DNA from: Fimbriimonadales bacterium
GTDB lineage: Bacteria; Armatimonadota; Fimbriimonadia; Fimbriimonadales; GBS-DC
DNA length: 64,000 nt
Reading direction: 5' to 3'
Assembly: GCA_025998675.1 (NCBI GenBank)
Contig: AP024673.1
Coordinates: 459,221-523,220, forward strand
How positions within the stretch are numbered: the stretch's first letter is position 1; each line of letters starts with the position of its first letter. A model generated the notes under the pieces. The model was not told the DNA's origin. It saw only the letters and a program-made list of their open reading frames with translations, and did no database searches. The translations under genes and the position numbers were made by a program. Shown in pieces: positions 4,615 to 52,782 of the stretch.

Positions 4615-6963
4615 ATGCAGTTCCACTTTGTTGGGATTGGCGGCGCGGGGATGTCGGCGCTGGCGCGCTGGCTGCGGCACAAAGGGGCGACCGTGAGCGG
4701 CTCCGACCTCGCCGAGTCGCCCACGCTGGACGCCCTGCGCCAGATTGGAGTGGACGCCTACGCCGCGCACGACGCCACCCGCCTGGGACGCCCCGATTGG
4801 GTGGTGGTCTCCGACGCCATCCACCCGGACAACCCCGAAGTGATTGAGGCGCTGCGGCGGGAAATCCCCATCTGGCGACGCTCGCAACTGATGGGGTGGC
4901 TCCTGCGCGACTATAAAGTCATCGCGATTGCGGGGACGCACGGCAAGTCCACCACGACCGCCATGACCGCGACGATACTGGAAGCCGCGGGCTACGACCC
5001 CACCGTGCTGATCGGCGCGGATGTGCCCATGCCGCCTCCGTGGCAGGGCAACCTGCGGCTGGGCAGCAGCGAGTGGGCGGTGGTGGAAGCCTGCGAAGCC
5101 TACGAGTCGTTTCTGGACATCAAGCCGTACCTCGCGCTTATCACCAACATCGAGCCCGACCATCTGGACTATCACGGCACTTACGAGCGACTCCTCAAAA
5201 GCTTTGTGAACTTTGGCAAGCATGTCTCCCATGAGGGCTACCTGATTGCCTGCGGCGACAGTCCGGGCGTGCGCGAAATGCTGAAGATGCTACACGGGAT
5301 GGGCGGGCATGAGCGTCCCCCGATTCTGTACGGGCTGGCGTCGCACAACGACCTGCGCGCCGAGATACGTGAACGCACGCCGACCTACACCGAGTTTCAA
5401 GTTTACAACAGCCACTGGCTCTCGGACTCCGAGCCGACGCTGCGGATCCCCTATCTGGGCGAGCAAAATGTGCAAAACGCGCTGGGGGCGACCTGCATCG
5501 CGCTGTTGCTCCAGATACCGACGGAGGTCATCGCGTCCGCGCTGGCGAGCTTTCGCGGGGTCAAGCGCCGGCAGGAAATCGTCGGCGAGGCGATGGGCAT
5601 CACAGTGGTGGACGACTACGCGCACCACCCGACCGAGATACGCGCGGCGTTGCGCGCGTTGCGCCAGCGATTTCCCAATCGCCGACTGGTGGTACTCTAT
5701 CAGCCGCACCTTTACAGCCGCACGCGCGACCAGCTGCACGGGTTGATTGATAGCCTGAGCGCGGCGGATTTTGTGGTCATCACCGACATCTACCCCGCCC
5801 GCGAGCAACCGATCCCGGGCGTGAGCGCGTCGTTGATTGCCGAGGGACTGCTGGAGCGCGACAGCCCGCCCACGCTCTATGTGCCGATAAAAGAGCAGAT
5901 TCCCTCGCGGCTGACGCCCCACCTGCAGCCCAACGATGTGGTGGCGGTGATGGGGGCGGGGGATATCGAAAAAGTTGCACCCGCGCTCCTGCGTCGACTG
6001 GAGACGCGTGGTCAGGCGCGACGGCTCACAGTCGCCGTTCTGATGGGCGGCGATTCGCCTGAGCGCGATGTGTCGCTCCTGTCGGGGCTGCGCGTGATGC
6101 AGGCGCTGAACCCCGACAGGTATCACGCTGTAGCCGTAGACCCTGCCCTGATTAAGGGCAAGGAGGGCTACTGGGGCTTGCAGGAGTTGCTGACGCGCGA
6201 GCGCCCCGATGTCGCGTTCATCGCGCTCCACGGCAAGCACGGCGAGGACGGCGCGGTGCAGGGGCTGCTGGAGCTGCTGGGCATTCCCTACACAGGCTCT
6301 GGCGTGTTGCCCAGCGCGCTCGCGATGAACAAATACATCGCGAAGATGGTGTTCCGCGAGGTGGGGCTGACCACGCCGAACGCGCTGCTGGTGGGCGACG
6401 CTTCCGACGAGACGATTGAGCGCGTGCAGCGACGGCTGCGCCTGCCCATCATCGTGAAGCCGAATCAGGGCGGCTCGACGCTGGGGGCAACGCGGGTGTT
6501 CGAATGGGACGCGCTCCCGCGCGCGCTACGCAAGGCGTTCGCCTACGACGAAAACGCGCTGGTCGAGGAGCTTATCGAGGGCGTCGAGGTCTCCGTGCCC
6601 GTGCTGGGTCGGCGCGAGCCGTATGCGCTGCCTCCCGTGGAGATTGCACCCAGGAGCGGCTATTACGACTTCCATGCCAAGTATGTGCCTGGGGAGACCG
6701 AAGAGATAGTGCCTGCGCGCCTGCCCACCGAGATCCTCGACCTGTTACAGCAGACCGCTGTCGCCGCGCACCTCGCGCTGGGCTGTCGGGGGATGAGCCG
6801 CGTGGATATGATTGTGCGCGAGACGACCCCGTATGTGCTGGAGGTGAACACGATTCCGGGGCTGACGCCCACCTCGCTGTTGCCGCGCAGCGCGGAGACC
6901 GCAGGGCTGAGCTTCGGCGAGCTGGTCGAGCGCATCCTCTGCGATGCGCTGGAGGAGGTATAG
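4615..6963 (+). CDS. murC: Bifunctional UDP-N-acetylmuramate--L-alanine ligase / D-alanine--D-alanine ligase (MurC-Ddl fusion, about 782 aa)
   Basis: The N-terminal half begins MQFHFVGIGGAGMSALA and has GTHGKSTTT (MurC). From about nt 6020 a Ddl-type ATP-grasp follows in the same ORF (RLTVAVLMGGDSPERDVSLLSG ... HGKHGEDGAVQGLLELLGIPYTGSGV ... EVNTIPGLT). No stop codon lies between the halves. An in-frame GTG at 4561 is an alternative start. Confidence 0.85.
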   Translation: MQFHFVGIGGAGMSALARWLRHKGATVSGSDLAESPTLDALRQIGVDAYAAHDATRLGRPDWVVVSDAIHPDNPEVIEALRREIPIWRRSQLMGWLLRDYKVIAIAGTHGKSTTTAMTATILEAAGYDPTVLIGADVPMPPPWQGNLRLGSSEWAVVEACEAYESFLDIKPYLALITNIEPDHLDYHGTYERLLKSFVNFGKHVSHEGYLIACGDSPGVREMLKMLHGMGGHERPPILYGLASHNDLRAEIRERTPTYTEFQVYNSHWLSDSEPTLRIPYLGEQNVQNALGATCIALLLQIPTEVIASALASFRGVKRRQEIVGEAMGITVVDDYAHHPTEIRAALRALRQRFPNRRLVVLYQPHLYSRTRDQLHGLIDSLSAADFVVITDIYPAREQPIPGVSASLIAEGLLERDSPPTLYVPIKEQIPSRLTPHLQPNDVVAVMGAGDIEKVAPALLRRLETRGQARRLTVAVLMGGDSPERDVSLLSGLRVMQALNPDRYHAVAVDPALIKGKEGYWGLQELLTRERPDVAFIALHGKHGEDGAVQGLLELLGIPYTGSGVLPSALAMNKYIAKMVFREVGLTTPNALLVGDASDETIERVQRRLRLPIIVKPNQGGSTLGATRVFEWDALPRALRKAFAYDENALVEELIEGVEVSVPVLGRREPYALPPVEIAPRSGYYDFHAKYVPGETEEIVPARLPTEILDLLQQTAVAAHLALGCRGMSRVDMIVRETTPYVLEVNTIPGLTPTSLLPRSAETAGLSFGELVERILCDALEEV

Positions 6964-29272: not shown

Positions 29273-30304
29273 ATGAAACTCAGCATCGGATGGATTCTTG
29301 CGGCAAGCGTGGCAGTTCTGACGCTTGCCGCGTGTGGCACGCAGTCTTCGGAAGGCAGCAAGACCGAGCAATCGTCCCTCTCGGGCACGATTCGCATCGA
29401 TGGCTCCAGCACCGTGTTGCCGATTTCGGAAGCCGTCGCGGAAGAGTTCGCCAAGAATCACCCGAATGTGCAGCCGACGGTCGGCAAGTCGGGCACGGGC
29501 GGCGGTTTTAAGAAATTCGCCAACGGCGAGATAGACATTACAGGCGCGTCGCGCCCCATCCGTGAGGACGAAGACGCGCTCTGCAAAAAGAATGGGATTG
29601 AATACATCGAAATCCCTATCGCCTACGACGCGATGGCGGTGGTGGTGAACCCCGAAAACACCTGGTGCGATTCGCTGACCGTCGCGGAGCTGAAAAAAAT
29701 CTGGGAGCCAGCCGCGCAGGGCAAAATCACCAACTGGTCGCAGGTGCGTCCTGGTTTCCCCAATGAGCGGCTGGTGCTGTTCGGCGCGGGTACCGATTCG
29801 GGCACTTTCGACTACTTCACGGCGGCGATTGTCGGCGAGGAGAAAGCCAGCCGCGGCGATTACACGGGCAGCGAGGACGACGACATTCTGGTGCAGGGCG
29901 TCTCGCGCACCAGAGGCGCGCTGGGCTACTTCGGGCTGGCGTACTACGAAAACAATCAGGACAAGCTCAAGCTCGTGTCTATCGACAACGGCAACGGTCC
30001 CGTGAAGCCCTCGCGCGAGACGGTGCTGGACGGCACTTACCAGCCGCTGGCGCGCCCGCTGTTTCTGTATGTGAATGTGAAGTCGCTGGAGCGCCCCGAA
30101 GTCGCCGCGTTTGTGCAGTTCTGCCTGGAGAACGCGGGCAAGCTCGCGGACGAGGTGGGCTACATCGGGTTGCCAGAGCAGATTTATGAGCTGATTCGCC
30201 AGCGTGTGGAGAAACGCATCACAGGCTCCGCGTTCGGCGCGCACGGCTCGCAGGTGGGCGTCAAGCTGGAAGACCTGTATAAGATCGAGGAGGGTTCAAA
30301 CTAA
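29273..30304 (+). CDS. pstS: Phosphate ABC transporter substrate-binding lipoprotein PstS
   Basis: Lipobox (LTLAACG), then [18 protein letters not shown] ... [26 protein letters not shown]. Confidence 0.88.
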
Positions 30305-48041: not shown

Positions 48042-48128
48042 CAGTTAACGCGCCCGCGCCGCCGCCCCCGTGAACCCGAAATCGGCAAATCTTGCGCACA
48101 CTGGCAGGATTTGGGGGCGTTGAGGGCG

Positions 48129-48134
48129 TATAAT
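48129..48134 (+). promoter_or_regulatory. Candidate -10 box (TATAAT) upstream of the sigma-like gene
   Basis: Perfect tataat 30 nt upstream of ATG 48164. No convincing -35 at 17-nt spacing. Confidence 0.3.
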
Positions 48135-48163: not shown

Positions 48164-48632
48164 ATGAATCTTTCATCGGAAACACTGGCAACGCTGGAGC
48201 AGTGGTTCCAGACCGCTGTTGCCATCTGTCGTCGGAAAGGGCTGACCGAGCAGGACGCCGAAGACTGCGCCGCTGAAGTGCGTCTGCACCTGCTGCGCCA
48301 CTTGCAGCGGGGCGGACTCCTCTCGTATGCATACTTCCTGCGCGTGCTACAGGGCTGCCTGGCTGACTTCTGGAGCGCTCAACTGCCCACCGTGCCCCTT
48401 GAGGTCGCCGATTTGTGCGGGGGGGGGGGCGTTCTGCGAGCTGGCAATCACGGTACGCCTTGCGCTGGAGCAGCTGGAACCTGCCGATAGAGACCTCCTC
48501 TGGCGGCACGATGGGGAAGGCTATACCCTGAAAGAGCTGGCGCTCCATTTTGGCTGCACTGAGGTGTGCCTGCGGCAGCGGTTGCATCGCGCCCGCCAGC
48601 GCCTCAAGCGCCTGCTCGCCGACACCGAATAG
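48164..48632 (+). pseudogene. ECF-like sigma-70-family factor split by a frameshift in a G11 tract
   Basis: The 5' ORF (48164-48490) looks like region 2 (DAEDCAAEVRLHLLRHL...FLRVLQGCLADFW). The 3' ORF (to 48632, other frame) is a region-4 HTH (LEPADRDLLWRHDGEGYTLKELALHFGCTEVCLRQRLHRARQRLKRLL). Removing one G (G10) joins them into a single protein of about 155 aa. Confidence 0.6.
48419..48429 (+). repeat. Homopolymeric G11 tract
   Basis: tgc-ggggggggggg-c, counted from both overlapping ORF translations (CGGGGV / CAGGGAF). Confidence 0.9.
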
Positions 48633-48726
48633 CCCTTTTTGCCCCCAAATCGGCAACCCCCTGTCACATTTTGGCGGTTTTTGGGGATTCTAAAGACGGA
48701 TTTCGCACACAGGAGGTTTGAGGGCA

Positions 48727-50589
48727 ATGCGAGTGTTCTGGGTTTTTGGGCTGATAAGTGCGCTGCTGCTGGGCGGCGCGGCGCAGACGCTGGTGCTGAC
48801 CAACGGCGACGCGAACGGCGATAATGTGGTGGATGACGCCGATTTGCTTGCAGTGTTGTTCGCGATGGGGCAATCGTGTCCGAGTGGTTGCCCAGAGGAT
48901 TTGAACGGGGATGGCGTGGTGGACGACGCAGATATGCTGCTTGTGCTTTTCAATCAGGGGGCGCAGGGGGCGTCGGCGTTTGCGGGCACGGTGCAGTCGC
49001 CGTCGGGGTCGTTTGGGCGCACGATAGGCGTGCGGTTGGGCGACTGGGTTGGGAGTGCGCAGTCGGTGAAGGTGCAGCTCAAGCCTGTGGGCGCGGAGGA
49101 TGACCCGAATGTGCCGATTTACGAGTGGACTTTTTCGGTGGGGGGCACGCCGCAGGATGTGCAGCTGGTCAATCTGCCTGCGGGGGCGTACACGGTGCGG
49201 GCGTTTGTGGCGAGTGGCGCGCGCTGGCTGCGGACAGAGGGTAAAATCGTGACGGAGGTGCCGTGGATCTTCGCGGCGCCGACGGGGGCGAATAAGGTGA
49301 CAGTCTACTGGGATCCAGTGCCGGGTGCGACGGGTTATCGGGTGCGCTGGGGGACGGTGAGTGGGAGTTATCCCAGCGCAAGTGGGCTGTTATCGGGTTC
49401 GGCGCGGCGCTACACGGTGTCGGGCTTGGTGAGTGAGCGGGAGTATTACTTTGTGGTGGAGGCGGAGTGGAATGGGGTTTGGGGTCCGCCTTCGGAGGAA
49501 GATAGCGCAGTGCCGCATGTGGGGGCGATCCGATGGGATTCTGGCAATGTTAGCTGGATTATGAAGGATGTTCGGCGTGTGATTGGCTCTATGGCAGGGT
49601 ACGATATGCTCGATGTGTTAGGTCCTGACGGTCTAATCTATACTGACAGTGGGGTAAGGCAGCCGACGACCTTCTTTGACACGAATCGGCAGGTTTTCCT
49701 TTTTACCGACTTTCCTAATTTGCAAGTTCCAGCGGTTGACGCAGGGCGTGAAGAGTTAGAGAACACCTGCACCGGACCCTACCGTCGTGTGCGGACAAGA
49801 GGGGATCGAGGTATCACAGCTGTTTGTGGAACTTTTTGGGTACCCTCCACAACTTCACCGCGCTGGCCGTTCATTCAGATTTCCATACTTCCAGTCGTGG
49901 ATGACCCCAACAACAACTTTAGAACCGCAGATACACCATACATGTACTTTGGTTTCGCATTTGGCAACACGGATGTTGAAGGTGGTTTGATGTATCATCG
50001 GGCGGGTAGAGCTGGTTTGGGCTACCCACGCTGGCAGGCTTATATGAAGGTTGTGCATCAAGGTCGTGTTAGAAATGTAGCGATTACAGATACCAGCAAT
50101 ATGAGAGGGCACATCTTGGATAATGTATATGGTGGGACACCTACTGTAGTCGAGCTGTACGCTTTTAGTCGGGATCGGGCAGCAATGCTCCGCATACAGC
50201 CTATAGATCCCAAATACGGCAACACAATTTTCCTCAGGGAGATTTTTGCTACTGCCAAGCTCAGACAAAATATATCAGGAGCACGTTTTCGGCGTGTTTT
50301 CTCGATAGCTCAAAGAAGGGAGTCAATGCCAGGGTGCCCACTAATGCCCGGCTATGTAAGAACGGGTAGTTATGTAAGCGGAATGGGAATAGGGTATAAT
50401 CCTATTGAGGGTTCTCCTTTAGATCCACCTGGGCAGATTTCAACGGCTCCCTTTCTTTGGTTCGAGTGGATAAGACGCGATTATACCGATCAAGCTGGCT
50501 CATATCCAGGTTCAAATGCTGGGATTGTTTCGTGGGTCGAGATAATCCAAGATTCACGGGAAGCAGTCACTATATACTTAGGAAATTGA
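48727..50589 (+). CDS. Secreted protein: signal peptide + dockerin-like double Ca-loop + FN3 + about 370-aa unassigned C-terminal domain
   Basis: MRVFWVFGLISALLLGGAAQ signal. NGDANGDNVVDDADLLAVLF / EDLNGDGVVDDADMLLVLF dockerin repeats. FN3 (VTVYWDPVPGATGYRVRWGTVSGSYP...YYFVVEAEWNGVWGPPS). The C-terminal part has markedly lower GC. ATG 48727 is preceded by aggagg. Confidence 0.75.
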   Translation: MRVFWVFGLISALLLGGAAQTLVLTNGDANGDNVVDDADLLAVLFAMGQSCPSGCPEDLNGDGVVDDADMLLVLFNQGAQGASAFAGTVQSPSGSFGRTIGVRLGDWVGSAQSVKVQLKPVGAEDDPNVPIYEWTFSVGGTPQDVQLVNLPAGAYTVRAFVASGARWLRTEGKIVTEVPWIFAAPTGANKVTVYWDPVPGATGYRVRWGTVSGSYPSASGLLSGSARRYTVSGLVSEREYYFVVEAEWNGVWGPPSEEDSAVPHVGAIRWDSGNVSWIMKDVRRVIGSMAGYDMLDVLGPDGLIYTDSGVRQPTTFFDTNRQVFLFTDFPNLQVPAVDAGREELENTCTGPYRRVRTRGDRGITAVCGTFWVPSTTSPRWPFIQISILPVVDDPNNNFRTADTPYMYFGFAFGNTDVEGGLMYHRAGRAGLGYPRWQAYMKVVHQGRVRNVAITDTSNMRGHILDNVYGGTPTVVELYAFSRDRAAMLRIQPIDPKYGNTIFLREIFATAKLRQNISGARFRRVFSIAQRRESMPGCPLMPGYVRTGSYVSGMGIGYNPIEGSPLDPPGQISTAPFLWFEWIRRDYTDQAGSYPGSNAGIVSWVEIIQDSREAVTIYLGN

Positions 50590-51703: not shown

Positions 51704-52782
51704 ATGGTTCGGCAGAAGAGACAAGAAGGGGTATCACCGCCGCCTGTTGTTTATGTCTTCTTGGACGTAGACCTAAACCAACCCGCACCTGAAGGGCATT
51801 ACTGGATTAGCCTCCATCGTAAAATCTTACGCTATCGCGAAGGGGAAGTCGTTGAGGAACCTCTGCAAAGTATCCCCCTTTTTCTCGATCCGATAAAGAA
51901 CGAGTTTCGCCATAAGGACCTCTCGCCTGATGGTCAGTATTACTACTATGCGGGGGTATCTTTCACCTATTGCGGCAGAGTGGGCGACGCGAGTTCCAAA
52001 CCGATTGTGCTGAACAGCCTCTATCGCTGCAAGTTCTCGCCTGATGGTCGTTTCCTGTGCGGATACGGAGGGGGCGAGGAAGAGGAGATGATAGTGGTAG
52101 ACTGTGCCACGCGCCGTGTGCGCCGCTTGGCAACGCCAGAGTATCCGCGCGACACCGAGGATCCAAATGCCGACTATCGGTTTGGGTGGTATCCAGACAG
52201 TCGGCATATCTGGTATCAGGAAGATGTCGGGGCGCTCGATTATCATCGGCTGCGGGCTTCCAAGCAGGATGTGGTCAGTGGGCGTCGCTGGGTGTTGAAA
52301 GGGCGCCAGCTGGATGAGGTGTACCGCGAGTGGGCGTTGTTGGATCCACGCTACCGACGGGTCCTGTGGGGATGGATAATAACTGTGCCTTCCGCTACTC
52401 TCCCCGTCAACAGGTTCGGGCGCGGGTGGAGCCGCTCGCCGCGGCTTCGTATCTTGAATACCGCCCGAGGCGTCAGCAAGTGTCGGTAGAGTGGCGGTAT
52501 GGGCGTTCGCGCGTGGGGATAGAGCGAGGGCAACACCCCTGGGTACGGATACTTCCGCGAGATGTGACGGAGGATGGGCGCTGGGTGCTTCTTTCCGTTG
52601 GGAAACAGAAGGATGAGGAGAACTTTCATAGCGAGCTGCTTGCAGTAGAAGTGCCGATGGGCAGGAGGTACAGCTATGTTCAATTATCGGGGAAAGGTGT
52701 TGGTCTGGTTGGTATCCCGCGGCTGGCAACTCCATACGATAGACCTTTGTACCAGTTTTGGCGAGGCGAGGCAAATACTTGA
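51704..52782 (+). pseudogene. Island paralog P2, frameshifted
   Basis: The N-terminal 2/3 (KFSPDGRFLCG, FGWYPDSRHIWY, LLDPRYR) is in one frame up to about 52356. The family C-terminus (AFRYSPRQQVRARVEP...DVTEDGRWVLLSV...ELLAVEV) continues in listed ORF 52330..52782. The span of 1079 nt is not divisible by 3. Confidence 0.7.

Follow-up and report, generated by a model that had tools for sequence, protein, structure and literature searches.

Phase variation through repeat tracts is textbook biology for host-adapted pathogens, in which it mostly concerns surface or DNA-modification genes. Among alternative sigma factors, SigH of Staphylococcus aureus is switched by a chromosomal rearrangement. 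The sigma factors of the extracytoplasmic function (ECF) group typically, if not universally, have a cognate anti-sigma gene nearby, and their textbook promoter motif is GGAAC/CGT. Systems built on phase-variable Mod methyltransferases have been named phasevarions (Srikhanta et al. 2010, cited in PMC3711429). For SigH, a "phase-variation-like" process was described as one of two controls on production, by which a subpopulation comes to express the competence machinery (PMC7911514, citing Morikawa et al. 2012). Our full-text literature searches retrieved neither an ECF nor any other sigma factor switched by a homopolymer, and nothing on sigma factors in Fimbriimonadales. Here we describe a poly-G tract within a small ECF-type sigma gene of a Fimbriimonadales bacterium, located in a 64,000-nt stretch of DNA (GenBank assembly GCA_025998675.1, contig AP024673.1, positions 459,221 to 523,220), which we call the window and number from its first base.

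We consider it probable that this is a slipped-strand contingency tract that makes the sigma factor phase-variable, providing heritable and reversible ON/OFF control of the sigma factor and of the adjacent secreted-protein operon. The idea of a phase switch had been raised in an initial annotation made from the sequence alone, and it now has strong comparative support from a conserved but variable tract, length differences between strains with identical flanks, the presence of ON and OFF alleles within species, and purifying selection. Throughout, ON denotes alleles in which the two halves of the gene share a reading frame, and OFF those in which they do not. All tract lengths were taken from consensus assemblies.

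The poly-G tract and the sigma gene around it

The run of 11 Gs (G11) is the longest homopolymer of the window, and its position was borne out by direct reading. It has the flanks TTGTGC-G(n)-CGTTCTGCGAG and sits inside the small alternative sigma-factor gene, which is laid out as follows:

48164..48418, + strand: N-terminal sigma-2-like part, 85 codons in the frame of the ATG at 48164 (open reading frame list, weak Pfam match, family profile)
48419..48429, + strand: G11 homopolymer in the sigma-2/sigma-4 linker, putative slipped-strand switch (read from the sequence)
48430..48632, + strand: C-terminal sigma-4 part in the +1 frame, with TAG at 48630-48632 (Pfam)
48488..48490, + strand: premature stop, end of the 108-aa product of the G11 frame (open reading frame list, translation)

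The open reading frame (ORF) that begins at the ATG, ORF-A (48164 to 48490, 108 aa), crosses the G run and stops 58 nt beyond it, and past the run it is the +1 frame that the ORF list gives as open up to the TAG. The initial annotation had placed the two halves of the gene in different frames on either side of the run and had calculated that 10 or 13 Gs would restore continuity, and both claims were correct. In silico, G10, G13 and also G7 yield one ORF of 155, 156 and 154 aa, respectively, while G8, G9, G11 and G12 all yield a truncated product. The junction in the restored ORF reads ...DLCGGGAFCELAITV... / ...PLEVADLCGGGAFCELAITVRLALEQ..., the linker residues of the in-frame product being …DLCGGGAFCELAITVR… and the out-of-frame tail …GGGGVLRAGNHGTPCAGAAGTCR.

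The run is no chance feature. It was matched in none of 100 dinucleotide shuffles of the window, and a third-order Markov model produced a G/C run of at least 11 in 8 of 200 simulations (an expectation of about 0.04 per window). The window contains no G/C run of 8-10 and two of 7, and its glycine codons are GGG in 27% and GGC in 54% of cases.

That the halves would match the hidden Markov models of sigma-70 regions 2 and 4 held fully for region 4 and partly for region 2. The C-terminal half matched Pfam Sigma70_r4_2 (E 1.6e-10; 38.8-40.9 bits, cut-off 25.7) and Sigma70_r4 (E 2.5e-9; 34.5-37 bits, cut-off 24.1), both above the gathering threshold. The N-terminal half alone gave a weak, sub-threshold match to Sigma70_r2 (best E 0.016, range 0.016-0.05; 13.8-15.4 bits, cut-off 24), and the NCBIfam model TIGR02937 (sigma70-ECF) scored 42.1 bits, slightly below its cut-off of 42.9. 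A family profile for which the reconstructed protein was combined with its homologues covers both domains: its positions 10-155 align with the solved structure of Mycobacterium tuberculosis SigE (9m9d_F, E 2e-11), and the same span also aligns with SigH (5zx2, E 3e-7) and Rhodobacter sphaeroides RpoE (2q1z). The profile alignment puts the invariant DAEDCAAEVRL motif onto the "DAEDL.QE.F" segment of ECF region 2 and the glycine run in the poorly conserved linker between sigma-2 and sigma-4. Intact homologues carry Gly-Gly-Gly at this position, in agreement with the proposal that the tract occupies an inter-domain linker in which glycines are tolerated. Because the profile aligns end to end with ECF structures and the glycine run falls in the linker, the sequence evidence indicates that both halves are one ECF-type sigma factor, split within its linker. 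The reconstructed protein, at 155 aa, has a short linker only and neither region 1.1 nor region 3.

The sigma gene lies between a carboxyl transferase gene upstream and the gene of an fn3/dockerin secreted protein downstream. Scanning of proteins of the surrounding gene island and of the adjoining genes revealed no anti-sigma domain, and no further copy of the sigma gene was found elsewhere in the window.

Tract length, reading frame and selection across the gene family

A protein search retrieved full-length homologues of 152-157 aa with about 55% identity. The closest relatives (61-78% identity in the N-terminal half) all end right after ...CGGG (P0005, P0007, P0012, P0016, P0017, P0018 and P0020). 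We therefore turned to the DNA of 81 loci, collected through exact-protein look-ups, one scan of GTDB representatives and one scan of JGI metagenomes. The loci come from metagenome-assembled genomes (MAGs) of Fimbriimonadales/Armatimonadota (HR15, KatS3mg016, KatS3mg021, JP3_11, "Armatimonadetes bacterium GBS") and from metagenomes, many of them apparently of hot-spring origin. The sigma-2 and sigma-4 halves were located separately by tblastn, and the counts below are of distinct alleles; exact-protein look-ups favour one tract length per query.

In most of the 81 loci a G run was present at the identical spot, right after the codons for ...PLE.AD(L/S/W)(C/H). The initial annotation had called for a comparison of tract length among related strains; the homologous tracts turned out to range from 7 to 13 Gs, with differences between strains whose flanks are identical. 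Across 252 kb of related loci, this one tract accounts for 19 of the 23 G/C runs of at least 8. Run length and frame state are strongly associated (Fisher p = 3e-6):

Longest G run of 6 or fewer: 17 in-frame alleles, 1 out-of-frame allele
Longest G run of 7 or more: 4 in-frame alleles, 16 out-of-frame alleles

The single out-of-frame allele with a short run carries another lesion upstream. The 16 out-of-frame alleles with long runs are divided 8 to 8 between the two wrong frames, as expected for random changes in length, and the 20% of long tracts that are in frame are consistent with the one-third that free wandering would give (p = 0.24). Interrupted tracts occur both in frame (L031, GGTGGGGG; L038, G7-AGGTGG) and out of frame (G7CG4 in L072-79).

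Tract length differs between near-identical strains. One set of closely related contigs holds G7 (L049), G9 (L046), G10 (L047) and G12 (L048), the 200-nt flanks of L046 and L047 being 100% and 99.5% identical; likewise L054 has G8 and L056/57 have G7, with 200-nt flanks that are 100% identical. Two further within-species pairs are suggested by protein tails, namely P0025 (ON) with P0005 (G8-like, OFF), and P0012 (G11) with L040 (G12).

The most informative case is the species represented by loci L001-L010 (hereafter the L003 species). Its common allele, G9, is OFF with a 95-aa product; independent JGI, ENA and NCBI samples contributed at least 24 contigs that carry it, among them a 104x Illumina metaSPAdes contig and a contig of 3.03 Mb. 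By looking up the exact sequences of hypothetical alleles we found that the G10 (ON) product of this species exists as well: a protein of 156 aa (GIV12938.1, KatS3mg021), present on 3 contigs, two of which were read. Over 6471 bp, the G10 locus L068 and the G9 locus L003 differ by no substitution and by 2 homopolymer indels, one in the sigma tract and one in an intergenic poly-A tract. The latter (A8-A10; L003 4496-4504) lies upstream of the gene for a LacI-family regulator that precedes the sigma gene, and is the sole other indel-polymorphic site among otherwise identical assemblies of the species. The in-frame length is G10 in both the L003 species and the window. Since the common L003 allele lacks one G and the window allele has one too many, the defect has no conserved direction.

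Splitting of the gene is carried over into public annotation. In the L003 species the gene calls are a 95-aa "hypothetical protein" (6001-6288) and a 60-aa "sigma-70 family RNA polymerase sigma factor" (6288-6470) that overlap in TGATG, and in public MAGs the sigma gene is routinely annotated as a "hypothetical protein" plus a 60-aa "sigma-70 family" fragment. This should serve as a warning that sigma genes of this kind get split in public MAGs.

The trivial explanation offered in the initial annotation, a homopolymer sequencing error, fails for the pattern in the family, because G9 was reproduced in at least 24 independent contigs, including the 104x Illumina assembly and the 3-Mb contig. It could still apply to the exact count in the window: G11 would then be a sequencing or assembly error, with a true length in frame, e.g. 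G10, and the family pattern would be unaffected. On most platforms, errors are commonest in homopolymers of 10 or more bases, the window species is without a second assembly in the public collection for comparison (the G9, G10, G11 and G12 products of the window had no exact match there), and the island contains one more frameshift, at about 52360 in the gene of the 261-aa paralogue (G3, as against G4 in L003). On the other hand, the out-of-frame state is the commonest one in relatives and is reproduced by independent assemblers and platforms; out-of-frame G11 itself recurs in L055 and in L080/L081; and FtsW, MurG, MurC-Ddl, the carboxyl transferase and BatA/VWA have intact full-length matches in the window. 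As the checked housekeeping genes are intact, the assembly is not riddled with indels. We thus regard a miscount in the window as improbable. A generally error-ridden assembly was discarded as an explanation, given the intact dcw cluster and other checked housekeeping genes, with one further frameshift in the island.

To see how selection acts on the split gene, Nei-Gojobori rates of nonsynonymous (dN) and synonymous (dS) substitution were computed for each half separately. For the sigma-4 half they were:

Window versus L003: dN 0.043, dS 0.374, dN/dS 0.115
L046 (G9) versus L048 (G12): dN 0, dS 0.149, dN/dS 0
38 OFF-OFF pairs: median dN/dS 0.24
44 ON-ON pairs: median dN/dS 0.17

Both halves of OFF alleles are under purifying selection. 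The N-terminal half has a dN/dS of 0.2-0.4 and the sigma-4 half of out-of-frame alleles one of about 0.1-0.3, and none of the 16 out-of-frame alleles has additional stops or indels in the sigma-4 frame. The low dN/dS and the intact frame imply that the sigma-4 half is translated often enough for selection to keep it in lineages that are OFF at present. Across lineages with saturated synonymous sites (dS above 1) the G runs have stayed pure, despite GGG being a minority among glycine codons; the purity of the run is presumably maintained by selection or by continual slippage-driven homogenisation.

These values speak against a decaying pseudogene, in which a frameshift at a fragile site would have inactivated the sigma factor. 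In out-of-frame alleles the dN/dS of the downstream half, 0.1-0.3, is as low as in intact ones, at dS up to and beyond 1, no further lesions have accumulated, and ON alleles exist in the same species. Remnants of the kind that decay would leave are found in the family: a possibly IS630-like element right after the tract in L054, with its flanking sequence in L056-59 and L062; N-terminal fragments in L016, L052/53/58 and L066; a deleted sigma gene in L071 and an absent one upstream of the L070 copy; and, in the window, the second frameshift within the island. We nonetheless judge decay to be very unlikely as an account of the window gene.

The TGATG overlap raises a different option, in which sigma-2 and sigma-4 are made as separate, translationally coupled polypeptides that join on RNA polymerase. 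Bacillus subtilis SigO-RsoA is a two-subunit sigma factor, and the TGA that closes the G9 frame of the L003 species shares bases with the ATG of the 60-aa sigma-4 ORF. The overlap is confined to the L003 species, the remaining out-of-frame alleles have their stops and starts at varying positions, and the window has no ATG, GTG or TTG past the tract in the sigma-4 frame; a split sigma factor of this type is accordingly the most far-fetched of the explanations that we considered, with hardly any chance of being correct.

A more serious competitor is recoding, in which RNA polymerase slips on the G run or the ribosome shifts on GGG GGG G, such that every allele yields some full-length sigma factor. 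Out-of-frame alleles dominate the long tracts (16 of 20) and are stable over many samples, and the sigma-4 half is nevertheless under purifying selection, both of which recoding would accommodate. Homopolymer frameshifts rescued by slippage have precedents in endosymbionts and in Thermus dnaX (PMC5009743; PMC3711429), and in thermophilic hosts an rG:dC hybrid might be expected to realign more readily. Yet the shift that would be needed is not conserved, with 8 alleles requiring +1 and 8 requiring +2; in-frame alleles occur within the same species; a number of OFF tracts are no longer than 7-8 Gs; RNA folding of the 121 nt that surround and follow the tract is no stronger than that of shuffled sequence (z = +1.12), and there is no Rfam match; and the slippage sites in that literature are runs of A or T, with no G runs (PMC3711429). 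We therefore hold recoding to be unlikely, while leaving it a modest chance, and would say the same of its corollary, that tract length tunes the amount of sigma factor like a rheostat and that variation in DNA length is largely incidental. Switching and recoding are not mutually exclusive. Programmed frameshifting in a fixed direction was rejected, as +1 and +2 are needed equally often, in-frame alleles exist, and neither RNA structure nor an Rfam match was detected.

The adjacent operon and the proposed switch

Directly downstream of the sigma gene lie a conserved promoter-like element, a secreted-protein gene and an array of paralogues. The initial annotation had noted the secreted-protein gene and the array in the window, and the order recurs in relatives:

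48129..48134, + strand: TATAAT, a -10-like box of sigma-70 type, presumed housekeeping promoter of the sigma gene (sequence, relatives)
48645..48695, + strand: conserved promoter-like element CCAAATCGGCAA...cccTGTCACATTTTG-N11-GGGGATTCTAA, candidate target promoter of the sigma factor (conservation)
48727..50589, + strand: secreted protein gene, 620 aa, with signal peptide, two dockerin-like Ca-binding repeats, fn3 and a beta-rich C-terminal domain of about 350 aa
50600..55157, + strand: four paralogous genes of 330, 261 (plus a frameshifted continuation), 371 and 346 aa (pairwise BLASTP, tblastn synteny)

The element, in the form cccTGTCACATTTTG-N10-11-GGGGATTCTAT (also written TGTCACATTTTG-N10-11-GGGGATTCTAT), is common to 26 distinct related loci at the same place. 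Its core occupies 48662-48693 in the window and does not occur there a second time. Every locus of sufficient length has both the element and the secreted-protein gene conserved downstream of the sigma gene, and the synteny of the sigma gene followed by a secreted-protein homologue extends over 32 loci. No terminator was found between the sigma gene and the operon. As for the promoter of the sigma gene itself, most relatives have a TATAAT or TATAAT-like box at the equivalent place, L021 having a full TTGACA-N16-TATAAT, while a consensus scan of the window found no complete two-hexamer promoter.

A natural deletion bears on the relation between the sigma factor and the element. In L071 (3895-4003; JGI Ga0599199_00155), compared with L021 (1250-1345), the sigma gene has been precisely deleted, and the TTGACA -35 box and spacer of its promoter have been joined to the GGGTATTCTATAGGTGCGATTC segment of the downstream element, which comprises the -10 box and 5' untranslated region. 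The secreted-protein gene was thereby placed behind a housekeeping-type promoter. Judged from the sequence, this arrangement would fit two ideas: that the element is a promoter with a -35 half read specifically by this sigma factor, and that driving the adjacent operon is the sigma factor's main task.

The switch that we propose would work as follows. Slipped-strand mispairing during replication would add or drop Gs in the hypermutable tract, each change in length moving sigma-4 into or out of frame with sigma-2; in the window species G7, G10 and G13 would be ON, and the G11 present here OFF. As no adjacent gene has a recognisable anti-sigma domain, the main control on the activity of the sigma factor would be whether or not the protein is produced. 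When ON, it would direct RNA polymerase to the TGTCACA...GGGGATTCTAT element right downstream, and from the active element the genes of the dockerin/fn3 secreted protein and of the paralogue array would be expressed, the outcome being a phase switch of one operon at the level of the sigma factor. The tract, its position in the linker, the frame logic, the length polymorphism, the ON and OFF alleles within a species, the purifying selection, the synteny and the element are all observed; frequent switching in a population, recognition of the element by the sigma factor, and what the regulated proteins do, we infer.

Several points weigh against this proposal. OFF lengths are strikingly stable across samples (at least 24 contigs have G9, 8 samples G7CG4 and 2 samples G11), as seen through exact-protein look-ups, which are biased towards one length; either there is strong selection for OFF or switching is slower than at classical contingency loci. 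ON alleles are a minority among long tracts (4 of 20). The G10 contigs of the L003 species are one MAG (GCA_026003155.1), a Logan assembly of run DRR101367 and a third contig, and possibly share a read set; the G10 assembly is also one base longer in the poly-A tract, so that platform bias is conceivable. Finally, the link from the sigma factor to the element is suggested by position and conservation.

Taking the family as a whole, a broader proposal is that these are ECF sigma factors without an adjacent anti-sigma gene, in free-living thermophilic Armatimonadota, placed under a selection-maintained poly-G tract in the linker to form a "sigma phasevarion" for a secreted or surface module, with lineages alternating between switchable, locked-ON and locked-OFF forms. 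We see the chances of this proposal as evenly balanced. A pure tract would be the switchable form; an interrupted tract, or deletion of the sigma gene with fusion of a housekeeping promoter to the target, would be locked ON; and insertion of an insertion sequence (IS) would be locked OFF. In L054 (3121-3970), and also in L056, L057, L059 and L062, the sigma gene is cut right after the G tract by a common insert (…TATACCAATCGCGCGTCCAAAGTTCACTATTTGCC…), and the ORF after it resembles, as judged by eye, a helix-turn-helix transposase, possibly IS630-like. Such an insert-truncated sigma gene would be a locked-OFF form.

Further sequences accompany the promoter-like element. Two to three tandem CCCCAAATTT(N) copies are often found just upstream of the TGTCACA element (L046 600-660, L048, L055 and others), and could be an UP-like element or a site for another regulator. 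The region upstream of the sigma gene in the window (48078-48125) contains a partial copy of the 48645-48690 element (AAATCGGCAA ... CACA.TGGC(A/G)G.TTTGGGG), which could provide autoregulation in the window species; it is not seen in most relatives, and the AAATCGGCAA word also occurs at 29417 on the - strand, within apparent coding sequence.

The secreted protein has a Pfam fn3 match (E 3.9e-7) and a Dockerin_1 match below threshold (E 1.2e-3). Its AlphaFold model has a pLDDT (predicted local distance difference test) score of 87, with PDB neighbours for the fn3 part only. Relatives have at least one member of the paralogue array after the secreted-protein gene. The array matched no Pfam family, giving only a sub-threshold PD40 hint. 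Within it, the 261-aa paralogue gene (51704-52782) is frameshifted near 52355-52365. The L003 orthologue (89% identity) is intact at 381 aa, and the window gene goes on in another frame from about 52360 (ORF 52330..52782), with CGACGGGTCC where L003 has CGATGGGGTCC, i.e. G3 versus G4; either the gene has truly been inactivated by mutation or the indel stems from the assembly.

The placement of the sigma gene at the head of an island, as initially described, is roughly right. The GC content of the window drops from about 0.63 to 0.49-0.58 at about 49.0-56.5 kb, so that the low-GC block begins just downstream of the sigma gene, and among species the module is found in differing genomic contexts; the varied contexts and the low-GC block fit the label of an island. 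A different setting is that of L070 (8001-9572; GCA_037444405.1, JBBIML010000012.1), where a secreted protein that is 94% identical to that of the window but is missing about 100 N-terminal residues is followed by a 331-aa gene, with no sigma gene and no TGTCAC element upstream.

Relation to known systems

If the proposed switch is correct, this would be the first homopolymer-switched sigma factor, and sigma factors would join the classes of regulators that are wired as mutational switches. It would offer a natural answer to how an ECF sigma factor without an adjacent anti-sigma gene is regulated. Tract length would become a sequence-readable marker of population heterogeneity in hot-spring mats, and the locus would be evidence of bet-hedging of the contingency-locus kind in such communities, perhaps against phage or in public-goods conflicts.

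As an ECF (group 4) sigma factor, the protein has the expected sigma-2/sigma-4 architecture of about 155 aa, the profile match to SigE and SigH and the DAED... motif of region 2. It differs in a divergent sigma-2 that remains below the Pfam threshold as a single sequence, in the lack of a recognisable anti-sigma gene nearby, and in a candidate promoter, TGTCACA...GATTCTAT, that is unlike the GGAAC/CGT motif.

The slippage-rescued frameshifts of Buchnera and Blochmannia (poly-A) and of Thermus dnaX (A9; PMC5009743) share with our locus persistent out-of-frame homopolymers and purifying selection downstream of them. Those are runs of A or T with a consistent frame need, whereas here a G run requires a variable shift and in-frame alleles exist in the same species.

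With the poly-G contingency loci of Campylobacter jejuni, Neisseria and Haemophilus, the locus shares a coding run of 7-13 Gs in which one-base changes toggle the frame, a length that differs between otherwise identical strains, and a gene that is otherwise intact and under selection. This likeness is drawn from assembled alleles. Those loci belong to host-adapted pathogens and concern surface or modification genes, whereas here the hosts are uncultured, free-living thermophilic Armatimonadota, the gene encodes a transcription initiation factor, and the tract is conserved at one position across the whole gene family.

Closer still in logic are the phase-variable regulators, such as Bordetella bvgS (poly-C), C. 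jejuni flgS/flgR and the Mod phasevarions, in which a repeat mutation in a regulator alters other genes coordinately; in our case it is an ECF-type sigma factor that plays this part, with one adjacent operon as its apparent regulon. S. aureus SigH offers the parallel of a sigma factor under phase-variation-like control, and the passages of PMC7911514 that deal with it describe no homopolymer frameshift in the sigma gene. The mechanism that we propose is thus ordinary; what would be unusual is that its target is a sigma factor switched in the linker, that the tract is conserved family-wide, and that the hosts have such an ecology.

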